From a virus, in UHGV virus genome UHGV-0135379: a stretch of DNA of 44,739 nt; one strand, given 5' to 3'. The translations under genes and the position numbers were made by a program. Of the stretch, positions 2,231 to 41,501 are shown piece after piece. How positions within the stretch are numbered: position 1 is the first letter of the stretch; the number at the start of each line of letters is the position of its first letter. Below the pieces are notes generated by a model. That model was not told the DNA's origin. It was given only the letters and a program-made list of their open reading frames with translations, and did not search any database.

Positions 2231-2259
2231 TTGCGCACCCCAATATAATAGGGTACTAT
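2231..2259 (+). promoter_or_regulatory. Promoter TTGCGC-N17-TACTAT carrying palindrome AATAG-GGTA-CTATT (2247-2260); drives lipoprotein moron
   Basis: Near-identical 30-bp element also at 4374-4402; 17-bp spacer; about 30 nt upstream of ATG 2287. Confidence 0.6.
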
Positions 2260-4373: not shown

Positions 4374-4402
4374 TTGCAGACACCAATATAATAGGGTACT
4401 AT
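4374..4402 (+). promoter_or_regulatory. Promoter TTGCAG-N17-TACTAT with AATAG-N4-CTATT box (4390-4403); drives the 63-aa moron
   Basis: Shares a 21-bp identical core with 2242-2262; correct spacing to ATG 4431. Confidence 0.6.
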
Positions 4403-4430: not shown

Positions 4431-4622
4431 ATGTTATATTCTAAAGAATGGTATGAAATCATGGAATTATTCGAGAAGAACTGCAAGGGGCGCTTCCGCT
4501 TCGATCGTGAAACAAAAGAAATGTGGAAAATTGGTGCATACTATGAGAACGGTGAATGCAACGAATGGTTTAAAATGTATCTCGCGGGGTATATGGCGGG
4601 GCGAGCAGCGTACCTTAACTAA
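4431..4622 (+). CDS. Hypothetical 63-aa protein; moron with its own promoter and terminator
   Basis: ATG with GAGGAG RBS, promoter 4374-4402 upstream, hairpin plus T-run downstream; AT-rich; inserted between portal and head gene. Confidence 0.6.
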   Translation: MLYSKEWYEIMELFEKNCKGRFRFDRETKEMWKIGAYYENGECNEWFKMYLAGYMAGRAAYLN

Positions 4623-34196: not shown

Positions 34197-36535
34197 TATT
34201 TGAACCCCGGCGCATTTCTTGTGGCCTTGCGGGCCTTGCTAATCTTACTGTTACTGTTCTGCAAAGAGGCAGCCACTTGCTCCTCGATGATGATACGCAA
34301 ACGGCCTTCATCATCTTGCTCAGTGGATACGTTGCCTATTTGAGAACTCGTGTTATTTACGATAGTAACATTAGATGGGCCGGAAGAAGACCCGTTTTGA
34401 CCCATAATTTCTTTCATCTGCTGCGCGGTGCGCACACGTGATGCACCAGCCGGCATGATAACTTCTGGTTTACCGCGCTCGGCGATGGTGGAAGCCTGTC
34501 CCGCAGATAACTGACCGCCCTGTTCACGCGCGGACCTGATAGCGGAAACCTGAGCCATACCTGCACCAACGGCAGCGGCAGCGGCTACAGGGGCCAGGAA
34601 CGGACCAACTACAGGGATAGCCGCCGTGGACTTGTAAGCCTCGATAGCTGCGGTGTACGTGGCTATGGTGGCCTGTACGATAGCGAATGCCTTATACGCA
34701 CCAGAAGCCTCGCCCAACGCAGACCCGATGTTTGACGCCATGTTACCGAAGGCGGTTGCCGTTGCGTCGGCTCGCTTGGTTGCGTACTGCTCGTTGATGG
34801 CGTTAAGCGCGGCCTGATACTGCTTCTCGCTAATAAGACCCTGTTCACGGTACTTATCGGCTACTGCCAGTTTCTGCTGTTCCTGAATATCCAGAAGCTC
34901 AAGCTCGGTGGCGTTCTGACCCATAATCTGAGCCATGAAATCCTCGCCTTTCTGCTGATTCTCCTGGGCCTCCTTCCTTTTCTTATCCAGTTCTTCCTGG
35001 CGGGCCTGTTCCGCGGATAACATAATCTGCGTCTTGGCGTTTTCGTACTGTTGGTCGCTAAGAAGCTTATTGCTATAGAAGTCCTGCAACTTAGACAGTT
35101 GCTCTTCCTGGTTAGCTTCTATTTTCTGAAATACGTCATCATTAAGATGGATTGACTGATAGTAGAAGTCTTCCGCCGCTTTTTTCTGGCGCTCGAACGC
35201 GTCCGCCGCTTTCTTAGCGGCTTTTGCGGCTGACCCGTCATCGTCAGAACCGCCGCCAGTTCCGGTTACCTTAAATTTGTTTAACCCCTCAGCTTTTGCG
35301 GACTCCTTATCGATGTCATACGCCGCGCGTTTTAACGCTACAATATCCTGTTGAGCTTCTACCTGTTCGCGGAAACTTTTACGCGTAACGTCGGTGACAT
35401 CGCGCTGGGTATCCAAAGCCAGGCCAAGCTGGAAGTTGATATTTTTAGCTACGTCTACTGATTCCCCGGGGGTAAAAGCGGCTCGTACAAGACGGCCCGC
35501 GTCCTGCGCGCCTTTAACCATATCTTCAAAGAATCTCTCCATCGCGGTGAACTCTTCCGCGATGAAGTCAAGCGCATCGGCGGCGGATTCAGCGATGGTA
35601 GTAGCCGTTTGTTCTCCGCTATCCGTAATACTCTTGCTGCTGAAATCCCACAGTTCATTAAGCCCGTTGATGGCATCGCCAACAAAGCCAAACGCAGCGT
35701 CGAATGACATCTCGATAGCGCTTCCTACTTCCGACGCGATGTTCCCCCACATCTGCATTTCAGCGGCTAATTCACCGGAAGCAACAGACGCGTTTAATTC
35801 CTGAATCAAGTCATCGATATACCTGATAGGTTCAGCAAGTGCGCCAACATCAAGACTGGTGGCAAGCGTCATTTTTAGCTGCGACCATGAGTCACTGGCA
35901 CTCGCGATAGCGCCGTTAAGGGTGTTGGCCTGGTCAGCCATAGCCCCCGCAAAATTTACGTTACCAATGTTAAGTAAATACTGCTCAATATCGGCAGCGC
36001 TTTTCTTAACTACGGTTGTCGTTCCCTGGAACGTAAACTCTACGTCGGTTTTGTTCTGCTTGGCTTTGATGCCGAATTCTTTGAGGCGTTCGAACTCAAA
36101 CGTACTGGCGTCGGCTACCGCCTCAATCATCTGATTAAGGTCCTTACCCATAGCCGATGCGGTATTGCCGTAGGACCGCAACGCCTCCTCGGATGGGGTA
36201 AGGCCAAGGGCCACCAGCTTACGGAAGCCTTCCACCGCCTGCTCCAGTCCGTATGGGGTGTCGCGTGCAAAATCTTGCAGGATACTTAGCGCCTGTTTAG
36301 CACCTTGGGTACTTCCGGTTAAGGTCTTCAAACTGGCGGACATCTTGTCCAGTTGCCGCTGTGAGTCAACTAGTTCTTGGGCGGCTTTATACGCGGTAGC
36401 CGCTACGATAGAAGCGAGGCCTGCTACGGCGGCCCCCGCTACTTTTGCGGACTTTGAAAGATTATCAAGACGGTCTGATGTGGCTTTCGCGCCTTGCTCT
36501 GATACTTTTACGACTAAACTAGCTACATCAGCCAT
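34196..36535 (-). CDS. Tail tape measure protein
   Basis: 779 aa, Ala/Gln/Glu-rich helical composition, follows G/GT chaperones. Confidence 0.85.
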   Translation of the reverse strand: MADVASLVVKVSEQGAKATSDRLDNLSKSAKVAGAAVAGLASIVAATAYKAAQELVDSQRQLDKMSASLKTLTGSTQGAKQALSILQDFARDTPYGLEQAVEGFRKLVALGLTPSEEALRSYGNTASAMGKDLNQMIEAVADASTFEFERLKEFGIKAKQNKTDVEFTFQGTTTVVKKSAADIEQYLLNIGNVNFAGAMADQANTLNGAIASASDSWSQLKMTLATSLDVGALAEPIRYIDDLIQELNASVASGELAAEMQMWGNIASEVGSAIEMSFDAAFGFVGDAINGLNELWDFSSKSITDSGEQTATTIAESAADALDFIAEEFTAMERFFEDMVKGAQDAGRLVRAAFTPGESVDVAKNINFQLGLALDTQRDVTDVTRKSFREQVEAQQDIVALKRAAYDIDKESAKAEGLNKFKVTGTGGGSDDDGSAAKAAKKAADAFERQKKAAEDFYYQSIHLNDDVFQKIEANQEEQLSKLQDFYSNKLLSDQQYENAKTQIMLSAEQARQEELDKKRKEAQENQQKGEDFMAQIMGQNATELELLDIQEQQKLAVADKYREQGLISEKQYQAALNAINEQYATKRADATATAFGNMASNIGSALGEASGAYKAFAIVQATIATYTAAIEAYKSTAAIPVVGPFLAPVAAAAAVGAGMAQVSAIRSAREQGGQLSAGQASTIAERGKPEVIMPAGASRVRTAQQMKEIMGQNGSSSGPSNVTIVNNTSSQIGNVSTEQDDEGRLRIIIEEQVAASLQNSNSKISKARKATRNAPGFK

Positions 36536-36887
36536 CGTTTCTACCCTCGAAAATAGCGTCTAAGCTCATGATGATGTCAGATTCGAACATCCCTATATTC
36601 TGGCCTGAAACGGTGCTGTACGCCACTAAATCTGACCATCGTAATTGCTCGCGCGGGTACATCTTGATGCCGTCGTCGTCCACTCGGCGGGTGAATTTAA
36701 TTTCCCTGTACTTCTCAAATGTGGTTAGTAGTTCAGGGGGGCATTCCGGCCCAGTGGCCTGCGTTGCGTCCGGCGCGTCTTGCATAACCCCCATAGCAAT
36801 TAGCGCGGCTTTATGCCCATCGGCGATACTGTCAAATTCCCGCCGTTTGTGGCGGGTTATGAAGTTCCAACGGGCGAACTGGAGCAA
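36528..36887 (-). CDS. Tail assembly chaperone T segment (-1 frame relative to G; probably expressed as a G-T fusion)
   Basis: -1 frame ORF overlapping the last codons of G, no ATG of its own (TTG only), overlaps tape measure start. Confidence 0.5.
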   Translation of the reverse strand: MLQFARWNFITRHKRREFDSIADGHKAALIAMGVMQDAPDATQATGPECPPELLTTFEKYREIKFTRRVDDDGIKMYPREQLRWSDLVAYSTVSGQNIGMFESDIIMSLDAIFEGRNDG

Positions 36888-36892
36888 CGCGT

Positions 36893-37309
36893 CTACTTTT
36901 CCTGTAGCTGGTGCAGTTGTTCGTTATGAAACACAACAACAAGTTCCGCGAGTCGTTTATATTGCGTCAGGAGTGTGTTCAGATTCTCTTTATTGAATTC
37001 GTCGTCAAGGCTCCACCCGTTAACCAATTCAACCGCTAACTGACGGTTAAGGTCCGTCGCCGCGTCTTCCATCTTCAGGTTGTATTCAGAGAAATCTTTC
37101 ATCTCTTCGCACTTATCACGAAGCGGTTTTAATTTCCCTAACACTGCCCGGTATGCAAGGGTGAACGCGCGCATAGCCTTAACGGCAACGTCTGCCTCAG
37201 GAGAAACAACATTAAGCCATTCCCCGGAATCGGTACCGTCTTTTAATGGTATCGGCATACGTGCACCCTTTTCAGCTTCAGCTTCGTAATAAAAATCAGA
37301 AAGTTTCAT
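36893..37309 (-). CDS. Tail assembly chaperone (lambda G-like)
   Basis: 138 aa acidic protein between major tail and tape measure genes; ATG with AAGGA RBS. Confidence 0.6.
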   Translation of the reverse strand: MKLSDFYYEAEAEKGARMPIPLKDGTDSGEWLNVVSPEADVAVKAMRAFTLAYRAVLGKLKPLRDKCEEMKDFSEYNLKMEDAATDLNRQLAVELVNGWSLDDEFNKENLNTLLTQYKRLAELVVVFHNEQLHQLQEK

Positions 37310-37416
37310 TCTTTAATCCTTTGGTTAAGAGGTTACTGGTTAAAGGAAATGCGCCAGACGGGAACCACCCGCTTTTCGTGTGCGACACTAGGCGCAAAAT
37401 TATTCTAACATACTAC

Positions 37417-37445
37417 TTGCACACCCTGATATAATAGCGTACTAT
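37417..37445 (+). promoter_or_regulatory. Promoter TTGCAC-N17-TACTAT with AATAG-CGTA-CTATT box (37433-37446); drives the 4-gene plus-strand island
   Basis: Same architecture as the moron and leftward early promoters; about 40 nt upstream of ATG 37488. Confidence 0.6.
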
Positions 37446-37487
37446 TCACTTACACCAACGATGTTATCTCAAATCAGGAGTTATGTT

Positions 37488-37679
37488 ATGACCGGTATCG
37501 CTATGTTCTTTTTAATTATTGTTGTAGGCGTTTATTTTATCCCGTTTTTTGTGGCCCATATGCGAAACCATAAAGCAAAGCTAGCGATATTCATGGCTAA
37601 CTTATTTCTCGGGTGGGTTCTGTTGCCGTGGGTATTCATTTTAATCTGGGCTTGTAACTCGAACGTGAAAGAGAAGTAG
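37488..37679 (+). CDS. Small 2-TM membrane protein resembling superinfection-immunity (Imm-type) proteins
   Basis: 63 aa from ATG at 37488 (AGGAG RBS); motif FIPFFVAHMRNH...LGW...ILIWAC; AT-rich; track ORF starts at 37461. Confidence 0.55.
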   Translation: MTGIAMFFLIIVVGVYFIPFFVAHMRNHKAKLAIFMANLFLGWVLLPWVFILIWACNSNVKEK

Positions 37680-37717
37680 GCTACTATAAGACAAATCCTA
37701 AACACGAGGAAGTAAGC

Positions 37718-38848
37718 ATGGCCCGGAAGAAAATAACCGACGAACAGTTACAGGAAGAATTGAACGCCGGAATGAAGAATGTAGACATCGCCCGTAAATA
37801 CGGCATCTCAGACCGCGTAATTCGTATCCGTAAAGCGAAGCTGGCTAAGAAAGGTGTAGGTCACGGACGTGATGTTAGCCACCTTGTCCCGGACGGCTAT
37901 AAGATTAAAGGAACGTCGTCACTGGTGGATGAGTTCGGCAACACTAAGTTGCAATGGGTTAAGACCGACACTGACGCCGAACGTCAGGTTGAATTGATGA
38001 AAGCCGTGATCGAAGGCATGAAATCGGAGATTACGCCCGTTGCACCTGTTAAAGCCGTTCGTGCCAAACGGGACGATAAGCTGCTCAATCTTTACACTGT
38101 ATCCGATTTCCATCTCGGTATGCTGGCCTGGGCCGACGAGAGCGGCGACGACTGGGACATGAAGATTGCGGAAGACCTGTTCTCTCGTTGGTTCGATGCA
38201 GCATTCCAGAAAGCACCGGATGCCGGTACTGGGGTTATCAATCTTCTTGGCGACTTAGCGCACTTCGATAGTCTTGATGCCGTTACGCCCGCAAGCGGTC
38301 ATGTCCTTGACGCTGACACGCGCTATCAGAAACTGGTCCGTTACATGATTCGTATGGTCCGCCGTGTCGTTGATATGGCGTTGGTTAAGCATAAAAATGT
38401 TCGCTTGCTTATCGTGCAAGGGAATCACGACGAATCGGGTATGATTTGGTTGGCTGAGATGTTCAGTACGCTGTACGACAATGAGCCGCGCGTGTTCGTC
38501 GATACGTCGCCGGATGTTTACAAGATGGTGCAACACGGCAAAACGACGCTGTTCTTCCATCACGGGCATAAAGCACGATTCGACGCTATCGAACCGGTTA
38601 TGATTGCCAAGTTCCGTAAAGCGTTCGGCGAGAGTGTTTACAGCTACGCCCACGTAGGCCATCTGCACCACCAGAAGATTGTAGAAAGCCGTAACATGAT
38701 TGTTGAGCAACACCGCACCTTAGCGGCTAAAGACGCCTACGCCTCTCGCGGCGGATGGATGTCGGGCCGCAGTGCAAATGTAATTACTTATAGCGCCGAA
38801 TATGGCGAGGTCGCACGTTTAACTATTTCACCGGAGATGCTGGGATGA
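37718..38848 (+). CDS. Calcineurin-like metallophosphoesterase with N-terminal HTH-like domain
   Basis: Motifs DFHLG, GDLAHFD, QGNHDE, HHGH, GHLHH; ATG with GAGGAAG RBS. Confidence 0.75.
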   Translation: MARKKITDEQLQEELNAGMKNVDIARKYGISDRVIRIRKAKLAKKGVGHGRDVSHLVPDGYKIKGTSSLVDEFGNTKLQWVKTDTDAERQVELMKAVIEGMKSEITPVAPVKAVRAKRDDKLLNLYTVSDFHLGMLAWADESGDDWDMKIAEDLFSRWFDAAFQKAPDAGTGVINLLGDLAHFDSLDAVTPASGHVLDADTRYQKLVRYMIRMVRRVVDMALVKHKNVRLLIVQGNHDESGMIWLAEMFSTLYDNEPRVFVDTSPDVYKMVQHGKTTLFFHHGHKARFDAIEPVMIAKFRKAFGESVYSYAHVGHLHHQKIVESRNMIVEQHRTLAAKDAYASRGGWMSGRSANVITYSAEYGEVARLTISPEMLG

Positions 38849-39333
38849 AAGATATTGTAATTTTCGATTTAGACGGGACATTGGCCGACGGTACCCATCG
38901 CTTACACCTGTTACCAAAAGATAACTACGGAGAAACGTGGGCGTGGAAGCCATTTAACATGGCCTGCAAAGATGACGCTCCGATATACGACAATATCCAT
39001 TTGTGTAGCGTACTGTGGCATTCCGGACTTACTATAATTATCCTTACCGGGCGAAGTGATGACGCTGAGGAGGAGACTCGCGAATGGTTACGAGAGAATA
39101 ACGTTAGGTTTGACACGCTAATCATGCGCAGCAAACACGACAACAGAAAAGACATCGTAATTAAAGAAGAGGTGTTGCGTGCTTTCGGACTGGAAAGAAT
39201 CTTGTGTGCGTTCGACGACTCTCCAGCGGTAATAAAGCATTTCCGTGACCTCGGCATAACCGCACACGCAGTTACCGAATACGACTGTAACGGGAACTCT
39301 ACACACTTAAAACCACACGGGAGCGATAAATAA
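38845..39333 (+). CDS. HAD-superfamily phosphatase resembling the 3'-phosphatase domain of T4 polynucleotide kinase-phosphatase
   Basis: HAD motifs FDLDGTL, ILTGRS, RKDIVIKEE, FDDSP in the same order and spacing as remembered for T4 Pnkp. Confidence 0.75.
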   Translation: MKDIVIFDLDGTLADGTHRLHLLPKDNYGETWAWKPFNMACKDDAPIYDNIHLCSVLWHSGLTIIILTGRSDDAEEETREWLRENNVRFDTLIMRSKHDNRKDIVIKEEVLRAFGLERILCAFDDSPAVIKHFRDLGITAHAVTEYDCNGNSTHLKPHGSDK

Positions 39334-39887
39334 TGGCTAAGGTAATTATTCTTAATGGCCCTGCGGGTTGCGGGAAAGACACGCTTGCTATGGCGCTGGT
39401 AGAAATGGGCTTTGCGAAAGGAACTACCAGTTTCAAGAATCCAATGTTCAATATTGCTTTGGCAGCGTTAGGCCAGGATGCTTACCACGAATTTCTCGAC
39501 GGCTACGACGACCGGGCGCGGAAAGAAAAACCCGAGGGTTTTCTTAATGGGTTGTCCCGCCGCCGGTTAATGATTGCCATTTCTGAGCAATTCATTAAAC
39601 CGGTATTCGGCGATGATTATTTCGGTAAGTATCTTGCTGAAAACTTGCCTGACGGCGACGAAGTTTTTGTAGTGTCCGATGGTGGATTCGCCAGTGAAGT
39701 TGCCCCTATCGTCGCCGCGGGGCATGACGTGCGAATCGTCCGCCTCCATCGTGACGGCTATACGTTCATCTGCGATAGCCGTGGCTATCTGTACGATGTT
39801 AGTGGTGTAAAAGATTACGACACCTACATCATACCGGGTGACGTTAAATCGAACGTTATAGACATTGCTTTAAAATTAGGTTTGTAA
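39333..39887 (+). CDS. P-loop kinase resembling T4 gp1 deoxynucleoside monophosphate kinase
   Basis: Walker A GPAGCGKDT and RRRLM motif; ATG overlaps HAD gene stop (TAATG); terminator follows. Confidence 0.7.
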   Translation: MAKVIILNGPAGCGKDTLAMALVEMGFAKGTTSFKNPMFNIALAALGQDAYHEFLDGYDDRARKEKPEGFLNGLSRRRLMIAISEQFIKPVFGDDYFGKYLAENLPDGDEVFVVSDGGFASEVAPIVAAGHDVRIVRLHRDGYTFICDSRGYLYDVSGVKDYDTYIIPGDVKSNVIDIALKLGL

Positions 39888-39918
39888 GAAAAAGGCCCCG
39901 AAAGGGGCCTTAGTTTTA
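39886..39918. terminator. Bidirectional terminator between the plus-strand island and the major tail gene
   Basis: Hairpin AAGGCCCC-GAAA-GGGGCCTT, T-runs on both strands; convergent genes. Confidence 0.65.
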
Positions 39919-41082
39919 TGCGTAGGTGATACGTTGAATTACGATAGACGACTGGTACTGATTGCCGGTAGCCTGGCCTTCAATGGACTGAGTGATTGAC
40001 TCAGGCCCACCAATCTCAGGTGTAACCGCCGTAAGCTCTGCACGTTTCAAACTGAAAGACATAGCCCCGTTTACCCCTGCCAGAATAGAGTTAATCTCTA
40101 CCTGCTGCTCGTTGATAAACTTCTGAATCATCGTCATGTCGTACAGCTTGCCAGAGATAGAGAATGTGTTAGCTGCGCGTCCACGTTCGACGAACGCCAC
40201 GCTACTGTTACCGAGTTCGAACTGCGCGGAAGCTCCGTTGTCGTTGGTGATGGTGAGAGTATCGCAACGCAACGGCGTGGAGCCATCGAACACCGACACA
40301 TCTACCGACGAGAACGGCTCATCGGTGAACGTAACCTGAGAGAAATCAGAGCCAGACGGCGGCGCGGTAAGAATCTCCTGACTCAGGCCGATGAACGGGA
40401 AGCTGCCGGTGACCATGGCGTTAACCGCCTGCTCTACGGTAAAGCCAGAGATTTCCACACCTTTGGTCAGCATGTACGCGTCCGGGTTACCACACTGGCC
40501 CTTGAACCACGTCAGGATGGAGAACGTCTTACACGCGTTACCGGTTTCCAGCTTGTCGCCAGTTTTTGCGTCAGTGGTTACTGTCTCTGCTGTCAGCGTG
40601 TGCTGAATACCTGCGCCCGTAACTACCAGAGCGGAAACCGCGGTCACGATAAACGGTTTTGCGTTGTCGCCGGTTAAGTCGGTGAACGCAATAAGGTCGC
40701 CAACTTCTACACCGTCAGTAATGAAGCTACCGGCAGCGCGGGTGAATGTTTTACCTGCTGGGGCGACCGTAATTTCGGCGCCAGTAATCTCTACCCCAGC
40801 TTGCCACGTAGAAGTCATCGCTCCCGCAAGGAAATCATCCTGGCTACGAGAGCTAAGTTCGATGGCGTACTCCCCGCTAACCTGTTTGTTACCGGTTCGG
40901 ATGGATGTAGTTTCACGGCTGCCGTCTAGTTCGTTGGAAGTCAGCGCATCGCGGGTTACGGCAGGAACACCGCCAGTGTTACGCAACGGCGACCAGACAG
41001 GGTTAGCCGGTGTTACGCCCGGGGTAGTTTCCGCCACATAGAATTGCGCGGTATTCGCGCCCTTAAAAGGAGTTGTAGCCAT
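39916..41082 (-). CDS. Major tail protein (tube), probable
   Basis: 388 aa from ATG at 41082 (AAGAGG RBS); last large gene before the G/GT chaperones; terminator hairpin after stop. Confidence 0.55.
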   Translation of the reverse strand: MATTPFKGANTAQFYVAETTPGVTPANPVWSPLRNTGGVPAVTRDALTSNELDGSRETTSIRTGNKQVSGEYAIELSSRSQDDFLAGAMTSTWQAGVEITGAEITVAPAGKTFTRAAGSFITDGVEVGDLIAFTDLTGDNAKPFIVTAVSALVVTGAGIQHTLTAETVTTDAKTGDKLETGNACKTFSILTWFKGQCGNPDAYMLTKGVEISGFTVEQAVNAMVTGSFPFIGLSQEILTAPPSGSDFSQVTFTDEPFSSVDVSVFDGSTPLRCDTLTITNDNGASAQFELGNSSVAFVERGRAANTFSISGKLYDMTMIQKFINEQQVEINSILAGVNGAMSFSLKRAELTAVTPEIGGPESITQSIEGQATGNQYQSSIVIQRITYA

Positions 41083-41084
41083 AT

Positions 41085-41501
41085 TCACAGCCTCTTGGTG
41101 AATGCAATAAAGTTAATTGACAATGGTCGTTTGGCCCATCCGTTTTCTACAATCAGCGGCCCCAGGCTAACCGATTGAACCTCGGCGCAGATGTCGTTAC
41201 GCGAAAATGCCTTACCTGATTTAAACGCCGTGTTAAGTAAGTCTGCCATTTTATTGATTGGCGCGCTACCTTTCACCGATGCGTAGTTAATGTCTATCTG
41301 ATAGACACCGGCGCGTTGTTCCGTGAAGAATAAGTCAGCCTGCTCGGTATCCGCCAGCAACATGTAACTTGCCAGATACGGCGTATCTGTTGACGTCGGC
41401 GCGTAGATGTTTTCAAGCGCTACCTTGATGCCGTTGGTGGTTCCGAAGGCTACCAGCGGCACATCAAACGCTTTTGTTAAGTCCTCAAAGTAGCCCATCA
41501 T
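41085..41501 (-). CDS. Putative tail terminator / tail completion protein
   Basis: 138 aa, immediately upstream of major tail gene; overlapping start and stop. Confidence 0.4.
   Translation of the reverse strand: MMGYFEDLTKAFDVPLVAFGTTNGIKVALENIYAPTSTDTPYLASYMLLADTEQADLFFTEQRAGVYQIDINYASVKGSAPINKMADLLNTAFKSGKAFSRNDICAEVQSVSLGPLIVENGWAKRPLSINFIAFTKRL

Follow-up and report, generated by a model that had tools for sequence, protein, structure and literature searches.

A metallophosphoesterase–phosphatase–kinase gene island in the tail operon of a Kagunavirus-type coliphage: a possible operon for host-DNA breakdown and nucleotide recycling

Introduction

Why should the tail operon of a siphophage hold, in the opposite orientation, the gene of a small membrane protein followed by the genes of three phosphoryl-transfer enzymes? 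The question is raised by UHGV virus genome UHGV-0135379, a stretch of 44,739 nucleotides (nt) that we refer to as the window and to which all unlabelled positions refer. Four plus-strand open reading frames (ORFs) at 37461/37488–37679, 37718–38848, 38845–39333 and 39333–39887 are inverted there inside a minus-strand operon, between the tail tube gene and the G/GT tail assembly chaperone genes. They encode an Imm-like superinfection immunity protein, a helix–turn–helix (HTH) metallophosphoesterase (MPE), a HAD phosphatase of the type found in polynucleotide kinase–phosphatase (PNKP) and a predicted deoxynucleoside monophosphate (dNMP) kinase. Transcribed independently of its surroundings, the island forms an operon in which one gene, the MPE, is fixed and two slots are exchangeable, and the MPE–HAD–kinase order is an old cassette, widely conserved across three phage families. 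Our working hypothesis, to which we assign a probability of about one half, is that the island is an operon for host-DNA breakdown and nucleotide recycling, to which a superinfection-exclusion gene has been added.

The window is, on nucleotide comparison, essentially the whole genome of a Kagunavirus-type coliphage (Guernseyvirinae), given its length of 44.7 kb and its matches to Kagunavirus genomes of 41–45 kb; 4.6 kb around the island is 99.4% identical to Escherichia phages BEU33/BEU35 and 86–96% identical to many Kagunavirus genomes, and has matches in 430 phage records, chiefly Salmonella Jerseyvirus and Escherichia Kagunavirus. Each of the four gene families is a known one with annotations in hundreds of public phage genomes, and the island is otherwise an ordinary genome feature. 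What is added here is the conservation of the coupled trio across families, in some of which a non-orthologous MPE fills the slot, the natural fusion of HAD with kinase and of kinase with dUTPase, a two-slot polymorphism around the fixed MPE and a five-copy promoter family, together with a parallel, offered as an analogy, to the A2/A1/Dmp proteins of phage T5.

Results and discussion

The MPE (37718–38848, plus strand; 376 residues) is the core gene of the island, and its product matches phrog_704 'DNA repair exonuclease' at 3.5e-167. Scores against the Pfam models Metallophos (21.6 bits, threshold 27) and Metallophos_2 (18.9 bits, threshold 21.5) lie below the gathering thresholds because the family is too divergent for these models. 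A first homologue search returned near-identical sequences only, and diversity came from a second search seeded with a Rhodobacter phage homologue; in the resulting 45-sequence alignment (approximately 40% identity) the motifs DxH, GDxxH, GNHD, HHGH and GHxH are invariant. The predicted structure (mean confidence, pLDDT, 79.9) shows an N-terminal three-helix HTH (residues ~8–45, LuxR/GerE-type), a β-hairpin/helix linker with invariant residues (~60–105) and an MPE domain (~120–376), and the five metal-binding motifs together with the MPE sandwich fold place the protein in the calcineurin-like superfamily. The HTH matched solely GerE/LuxR/FixJ-type HTH domains, and searches of the PDB with the single sequence and with the profile returned these HTH matches and no match to the MPE domain. 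In the predicted structure the protein ends with the MPE domain, and the C-terminal capping domain of the Mre11/SbcD type is absent. The model suggests, without being decisive, a nuclease-leaning placement near Mre11/SbcD. Motif II, GDxxH, has the Mre11 form (GDLFH), which we treat as a lead and not as a test. At the same site Jerseyvirus carries two very different MPE alleles, 89% and 55% identical to the window protein (locus L001:4001–5155 versus homologues H34–H36), which indicates that the core gene itself undergoes mosaic exchange.

The MPE family is present in 2043 phage records, from Drexlerviridae, Guernseyvirinae, Casjensviridae-like, Vibrio, Rhodobacter, Campylobacter and other phages; some Autographiviridae have it too. 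Within Drexlerviridae it is persistent (508 of 522 genomes) and lies immediately before the lysis cassette (PMC13164509). This distribution bears on one alternative to our working hypothesis, namely that the MPE has the phage's own DNA or gene expression as its target and not host DNA, either as a replication or recombination nuclease that processes hairpins or ends (an SbcD without SbcC) or as an HTH regulator with a small-molecule phosphoesterase, the HAD–kinase pair being a neighbouring nucleotide-supply addition. The N-terminal LuxR/GerE-type HTH, the presence of the MPE as a core gene in several families in which HAD and kinase are optional, and positions typical of regulators, before the Drexlerviridae lysis genes and, in many environmental loci, before a gene for a protein of about 118 residues, would all fit. 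The invariant catalytic residues, the host-DNA nuclease activity of the best-characterized phage MPE analogues and the shared pathway implied by the gene order described below tell against it, and on balance we regard this alternative as rather unlikely.

The HAD phosphatase (38845–39333, plus strand; 162 residues) is a stand-alone protein that scores 73.1 bits (E 3.3e-20; cutoff 27.6) against PF25109 HAD_PNKP, and its best solved relatives in the PDB are Pnkp1 (4xrp, 4e-6) and T4 Pnk (1ltq, 2e-3). An hhalign comparison with the phosphatase domain of T4-like PseT aligned 132 columns with a probability of 98.7 and E 3e-16. The motifs DLDGT, GR, D..R.D...KEE and DD are invariant, also with respect to T4-like PseT, with which D8, D10, T12, R70, D103, K107, D124 and D125 are conserved. 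On these profiles the assignment to the HAD_PNKP family is secure, and the candidate substrates are polynucleotide 3' ends, 3'-nucleotides or 5'-nucleotides. The stand-alone HADs carry an insert of about 17 residues after motif I ('HRLHLLP...W..FN') that is absent from PseT and present in T5 Dmp, and that points, without proving it, to a capped site for small substrates. Similarity to T5 Dmp itself is confined in hhalign to the N-terminal 93 columns (probability 90.5, E 1.4e-6) and in BLASTP to 48 residues (E 5e-4), with 'DLDGT-x5-HR' common to both proteins.

The kinase (39333–39887, plus strand; 184 residues) is a P-loop protein of the T4 gp1/phage dNMP kinase type that matches phrog_139 'dNMP kinase' at 3e-44, in a family with 1019 cluster representatives at E<=1e-30. 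An AlphaFold2 model built from a 37-sequence alignment (pLDDT 94.9) gave as its top Foldseek match in the PDB T4 gp1 (1DEK; E 7e-6, query TM-score 0.64, probability 1.00), followed by adenylate kinases and animal phosphomevalonate kinase; T4 polynucleotide kinase (1LTQ) is absent from the top 50 matches. The P-loop GxGKDT (G9–T17) is invariant in the family alignment. Profile comparisons by hhalign with the single sequences of T4 gp1 (36 columns, probability 58%) and of PseT aligned the P-loop only and do not discriminate between the two. Three natural fusions from metagenomes, among the longer members of the family, are informative: two proteins (P0392 and P0454, 403 and 461 residues) join HAD_PNKP to a gp1-type kinase in the order of the window genes, and a third (P0451, 373 residues) joins a gp1-type kinase to a dUTPase, an arrangement that ties the kinase family to free nucleotides. 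Phage dNMP kinases are reported to phosphorylate dAMP, dGMP and dCMP, with biochemistry on R1DNK, and to trigger the Kongming defence, as kinases of T5, Klebsiella phage vB_KpnS-VAC2 and the Drexlerviridae phage KarlJaspers do (bioRxiv 10.1101/2024.12.20.629578). The window kinase, which is 41–49% identical to Webervirus and Tempevirinae kinases and shares the catalytic Lys15 of the dNMP kinases in that study, very probably belongs to the same family as the reported Drexlerviridae enzymes. Since 1DEK is the best fold, a dUTPase fusion exists and the Drexlerviridae relatives were reported as dNMP kinases, we read its predicted activity as that of a dNMP kinase and not of a polynucleotide kinase. 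At residues 146–147 the window protein has FICDSR where close relatives have F[DETV]GDSR; phage vB_EcoS-22664BS2 is 100% identical, so this is a natural allele.

All three enzymes are thus of the kinds that the sequence-only reading had recognized from their motifs: a calcineurin-type MPE with an N-terminal HTH, a HAD phosphatase resembling that of T4 PNKP and a gp1-like kinase. They are also translationally coupled, since the MPE stop and HAD start codons overlap as ATGA and the HAD stop and kinase start codons as TAATG.

The composition of the pair invites a second alternative, in which HAD and kinase are a split polynucleotide kinase–phosphatase whose domains stand in reverse order, damaged ends are trimmed or opened by the MPE in a role likened to that of Mre11 or of the MPE domain of bacterial Pnkp, and host LigA or a phage ligase seals the DNA breaks that host defences or damage have caused. 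The membership of the HAD in PF25109, with Pnkp1 and T4 Pnkp as its closest solved relatives and the strong hhalign match to PseT, would be explained, as would the HAD–kinase fusions, the likeness of the MPE to Mre11/SbcD beside a predicted DNA-binding HTH, and the position of a DNA ligase directly after the trio in phage ECBP5 and after the kinase in phage VP-HS15. The kinase, however, is difficult to accommodate, its nearest fold being 1DEK with T4 Pnk outside the top 50, its family including a dUTPase fusion and its phage homologues having been reported as dNMP kinases (bioRxiv 10.1101/2024.12.20.629578); the HAD insert, which has no counterpart in PseT, occurs also in T5 Dmp; and neither an RNA nor a DNA ligase is annotated among the 83 genes of a close relative (96.5% identity over the island region). 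We therefore consider end-healing unlikely. For cleaved RNA, one of the roles first suggested for the island, the case is weakened further: the known RNA repair systems (T4 Pnkp with Rnl1, Pnkp–Hen1 and Pnkp1–Rnl–Hen1) likewise pair a kinase with a HAD- or MPE-type phosphatase, and the HAD has its best solved relative in Pnkp1, but on the window side there is no ligase or Hen1, none of the ORFs adjoining the island in the window encodes a ligase, and the kinase is of the dNMP and not the Pnk type. Without a ligase, and with a kinase unlike Pnk, repair against anticodon nucleases is unlikely. Two other roles put forward at the outset fared no better. A dNMP kinase cannot refill pools after a dGTPase or a dCTP deaminase has acted, and rescue from dNTP-depletion defences was rejected on this ground; the degradation of signalling nucleotides found no support.

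The order MPE–HAD–kinase recurs in Webervirus (TSK1 gp52–54), where it adjoins replication genes, in the Autographiviridae phage ECBP5, where genes for an exonuclease and endonuclease VII precede it and the DNA ligase gene follows, and in two further metagenomic lineages. In Drexlerviridae the exonuclease is persistent and genes for a polynucleotide kinase (PNK) and a dNMP kinase frequently follow it, and these two genes have been proposed to extend the replication module and to enhance nucleotide supply (PMC13164509). These three genes are homologous to those of the island and stand in the same order; they lie on the main strand between the replication genes and the lysis cassette, whereas the window cassette is inverted in the tail operon, after Imm, with its own promoter and terminator. 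Ahphunavirus and Kaohsiungvirus have an MPE of another family (phrog_221) in the same slot, after exonuclease/endonuclease and before HAD and/or kinase, as is seen in phages LAh5 and VP-HS15, in the latter with a ligase after the kinase. A non-orthologous MPE at the same place speaks for a shared pathway. In Webervirus and Autographiviridae the cassette has replication and DNA-metabolism genes as its neighbours, and the earlier opinion that it is cargo rather than core nucleotide metabolism is only partly right. The arrangement corresponds, as the sequence-only reading had it, to no named system, but it has been described with a nucleotide-supply interpretation (PMC13164509).

How the island varies was examined in a sample of tube–chaperone junctions chosen by the tube protein and hence unbiased towards the island. 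Where the tube is at least 88% identical, the MPE stands between tube and chaperone in every one of 33 loci, and the second slot holds either HAD and kinase (16 loci) or a gene of 76 codons (17 loci), never both. The first slot, occupied by Imm or by a 108-residue signal-peptide protein, combines freely with the second. At 67–81% tube identity the junction is empty in 17 loci (12–900 bp) and holds the signal-peptide gene alone in six. Jerseyvirus jersey has Imm, the divergent MPE allele (55% identity), an HNH endonuclease, the 76-residue gene and a Rha/Ant protein. From this pattern we conclude that the site is an insertion hotspot at which the MPE is fixed in Kagunavirus and Jerseyvirus phages and the flanking genes are exchangeable. 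The moron-like character proposed earlier therefore applies in part: the site is empty in 17 distant relatives and the slots are swapped, but the MPE is retained in 33 of 33 close relatives. The 76-residue protein is phrog_2452 (L085:7128–7358, L022:7128–7358, L001:5682–5912 and 30 other loci); its gene has the same ATGA overlap with the MPE stop, and its matches are to several 'ATPase' PHROGs of about 240 residues, over their C-terminal ~70 residues. It was considered as a remnant of kinase or HAD and rejected, as it is similar to neither. In many environmental loci (L053, L056, L058, L065, L066, L070, L074 and L075) the gene overlapping the MPE stop encodes instead the protein of about 118 residues, with the motif 'LTQWGxW...P.Y.SP...LMRDNV', which may resemble lambdoid Q-type antiterminators.

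HAD and kinase are present or absent jointly in all 61 Guernseyvirinae-like loci, and the pair is polymorphic among phages whose MPEs are 95–98% identical. A third alternative makes this polymorphism the trace of an arms race, in which Kongming-type systems exploit the kinase for dITP and a Dmp-like HAD removes the precursor dAMP/dIMP and so shields the kinase. Phage dNMP kinases do trigger Kongming, T5 Dmp, a DxDGT HAD, counters it and Dmps co-occur with dNMP kinases (bioRxiv 10.1101/2024.12.20.629578), and the strict linkage of the pair and the resemblance of the HAD to T5 Dmp, insert included, would agree with such a role. The HAD is nevertheless far nearer to the PseT phosphatase than to Dmp, a general 5'-dNMPase and a dNMP kinase that were fused or translationally coupled would undo each other's work in a futile cycle, and in the Kongming study we found no statement that HAD-carrying Drexlerviridae or Kagunavirus escape that defence. 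We regard defence or counter-defence as the purpose of the pair as improbable.

The island begins with a promoter of its own (37417–37445, plus strand), composed of a −35-like TTGCAC (37417–37422), a quasi-palindromic 17-nt spacer ACCCTGATATAATAGCG (37423–37439) and a −10-like TACTAT (37440–37445). It agrees with the σ70 consensus at only 7 of 12 positions, and a consensus scan missed it. Both hexamers are kept in 16 Kagunavirus/Jerseyvirus loci, and at >=11/12 identity the window contains the element (~35 nt, spacer conserved) five times, against a mean of 0.17 in shuffled sequence; the promoter and a possible operator within its spacer, both suggested by the sequence-only reading, are supported on these two grounds. 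The copies lie at 2231–2259 (+), 4374–4402 (+), 37417–37445 (+), 14067–14039 (−) and 12918–12890 (−), with the consensus TTGCAC-ACCCCAATATAATAGGG-TACTAT-TCAyTTA. An inverted-repeat search for an operator across 37300–37480 with a seed of 6 found nothing, and the quasi-palindrome (ACCC...GGGT) became visible only when the five copies were compared; the conservation of ACCCCAATATAATAGGG suggests a putative binding site of one common regulator. Since the other four copies head further groups of genes in the window, namely small-ORF clusters, a lone antisense gene of 63 codons in the head region and a cluster leading into holin, HNH and endolysin genes, TTGCAC-N17-TACTAT appears to be the phage's own promoter type.

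At its other end the island has a bidirectional intrinsic terminator (39892–39911) with the stem AAGGCCCC-GAAA-GGGGCCTT, common to the island and the convergent tube gene; it scored on both strands, as had been anticipated, and is followed by TTTCTT on the minus and AGTTTTA on the plus strand, the better T-run being on the minus strand, i.e. after the tube gene. The description of parts of the island as AT-rich is accurate for the Imm gene and the intergenic region (G+C fraction 0.40–0.41 versus 0.50 for the window, within the lowest 3% of 220-nt windows; 0.40 for Imm), applies mildly to HAD (0.46) and kinase (0.48), and does not apply to the MPE (0.51).

The first gene of the island encodes, as the sequence-only reading had it, a 63-residue Imm-like protein with two hydrophobic segments (37488–37679, plus strand), which matches PF14373 Imm_superinfect (E 1.6e-13, 50.8 bits, cutoff 27.9) and phrog_1039 (1.3e-23). 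The ORF is also open from an ATG at 37461, which would give 72 residues; a Shine–Dalgarno sequence AGGAG at 37476–37480, 7 nt before the ATG at 37488, supports the 63-residue start. T4 Imm is likewise a small protein with two transmembrane segments from PF14373; the window protein differs in being shorter, in that its function is predicted, and in being interchangeable in relatives with an unrelated signal-peptide protein. The latter (phrog_14165; 108 residues, N-terminal signal peptide; L014:5610–5936, L029:5609–5938 and L130–L133) replaces Imm in some relatives, is the sole gene at the tube–chaperone junction in more distant ones and may be an alternative exclusion factor.

We hypothesize that these parts act together as follows. 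Host RNA polymerase would start at TTGCAC-N17-TACTAT and stop at the hairpin common to the tube gene. The first product, an inner-membrane protein of the T4 Imm type, would exclude superinfecting phages. The fixed gene would supply a DNA nuclease, a DNA-binding HTH fused to an Mre11/SbcD-like MPE, acting most likely on host DNA and possibly also processing phage replication or recombination intermediates. From the products of this breakdown the accessory pair, translationally coupled, would make precursors fit for use: the PNKP-type HAD would take 3'-phosphates off ends or nucleotides, or otherwise trim the nucleotide pool, and the gp1-type kinase would convert dNMPs to dNDPs, from which host Ndk would make dNTPs. 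The substrates of MPE and HAD, host DNA as the target and the timing of expression are the parts of this scheme that we infer.

The reading of the island as an exclusion gene, a DNA-breaking MPE and an optional coupled pair draws on parallels with T5, a mycobacteriophage MPE and T1-like phages. T5 A1 is a predicted metallophosphatase akin to double-strand-break repair and proofreading nucleases, and is necessary and sufficient for host DNA degradation; T5 Dmp dephosphorylates the dNMPs released, and T5 also has the dNMP kinase Dnk (bioRxiv 10.1101/2024.12.20.629578). The A2–A1–dmp pre-early operon, with dnk elsewhere, thus offers the same kinds of protein as the island: a DNA-binding protein, a metallophosphatase, a DxDGT HAD nucleotide phosphatase and a dNMP kinase. 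The differences are that HTH and MPE form a single polypeptide in the window whereas A2 and A1 are separate, that A1 and the MPE family lack significant sequence similarity, that the window HAD is nearer to PseT than to Dmp, that the window kinase is co-transcribed with the HAD whereas the T5 genes are temporally separated, and that T5 discards host nucleotides, unlike T1-like phages. T1-like phages (T1/TLS) degrade host DNA and reuse its nucleotides, and the responsible genes have been stated to be unknown (PMC11447400). An early mycobacteriophage MPE, A10ZJ24 gp48, has the five motifs and is a DNase that degrades the host genome (PMC12287305); it differs in having no HTH (motif I begins at residue 10), in belonging to another MPE family, in infecting a host of another phylum and in being unlinked to HAD or kinase.

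T4 has the same three enzyme folds in gp47, PseT and gp1, gp1 being the top structure for the kinase and the PseT domain matching the HAD at E 3e-16. The T4 genes are dispersed and those of the window clustered; gp47 has gp46 (Rad50) as partner, and no Rad50 homologue is annotated on the window side, as judged from the genome of the close relative; and the T4 phosphatase is fused to a Pnk-type kinase and acts with RNA ligase 1 in tRNA repair. As in the window, gene 1 of T4 (L090:2650–3375) lies amid structural genes, adjoining the tail-fibre chaperone gene 57A, tail gene 3 and head genes 2 and 4, and is therefore a classical precedent for an isolated nucleotide-kinase gene in a structural cluster.

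Several observations weigh against our working hypothesis. T5 A1 aligned with the MPE profile at motif III only (probability 26%), neither A1 nor A2 was significant against that profile, and a Pfam search of T5 A1, A2 and Dmp gave no match. A Rad50/SbcC partner is not annotated in the genome of the close relative, nor are further nucleotide-metabolism genes. The HAD is most like polynucleotide 3'-phosphatase domains and fits end-healing as well as salvage. Mre11-type nucleases do not make the 3'-phosphorylated products that a 3'-phosphatase would require in dNMP salvage. We know of no report of host DNA degradation in Kagunavirus or Jerseyvirus. Finally, deletion of dnk from phage Rao1 had no fitness cost (bioRxiv 10.1101/2024.12.20.629578).

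With these points in mind, it is tempting to speculate further, and we do so tentatively, that the phrog_704 HTH–MPE may be the missing host-chromosome nuclease of T1-like and Jersey/Kaguna-like phages, a single-chain equivalent of T5 A2 plus A1. The HAD–kinase pair would then be a dispensable recycling addition, whose presence or absence among near-identical phages would reflect opposing pressures, for a supply of dNTPs and against exposure to defences that sense the kinase, such as Kongming; the HAD might act as a shield for the kinase.

The genes that flank the island agree with the setting first described for it. On the right is the tail tube (major tail) gene (39916–41088, minus strand; PF18906 Phage_tube_2, 3.2e-38), and on the left are the chaperone ORFs G (36893–37309, minus) and T (36528–36887, minus), a PF08748/PF23812 pair followed by the tape measure gene; as expected of a G/GT arrangement, both ORFs fall on a single PHROG, phrog_15027. 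Searches of the island proteins against PADLOC defence-system profiles gave no meaningful match for any of the four, and NCBIfam gave generic matches only, all below threshold. Upstream of the island promoter, a block at 37350–37396 is conserved across Kagunavirus and Jerseyvirus, and a hairpin within it, GTGT-GCG-ACAC (37378–37388), becomes CGGT-GCG-ACCG in Jerseyvirus, i.e. with two compensatory pairs; RNA folding of 37340–37405 gave a z score of about −1.5 on either strand, which is not significant. Back to back with the island promoter lies a candidate minus-strand promoter, read by eye, TTGGTG-N16-TATTAT (37431–37458; TTGACG in Jerseyvirus), which could restart transcription of the chaperone and tape measure genes after the strong terminator of the tube gene. 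The lone 63-codon gene that follows another copy of the promoter element (4431–4622, plus strand) is antisense amid minus-strand head and packaging genes and is a second moron-like insertion; its product had no match in PHROG. The GenBank record of a close relative, vB_EcoM_SHAK7858 (OR594183.1), is filed under Autographiviridae/Kayfunavirus and has the 'M' of a myovirus in its name, which is probably a taxonomy error because its gene content is that of a Kagunavirus siphophage.

If our working hypothesis is correct, host-DNA breakdown would be a testable job for a core gene that is among the most widespread unstudied ones in siphophages of the T1-like, Jersey-like and related groups, which include many candidates for therapy. 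Natural, isogenic-like pairs of phages, which carry either HAD and kinase or the 76-residue gene, would moreover allow the benefit of a dNMP kinase to be measured against its cost under kinase-sensing immunity.

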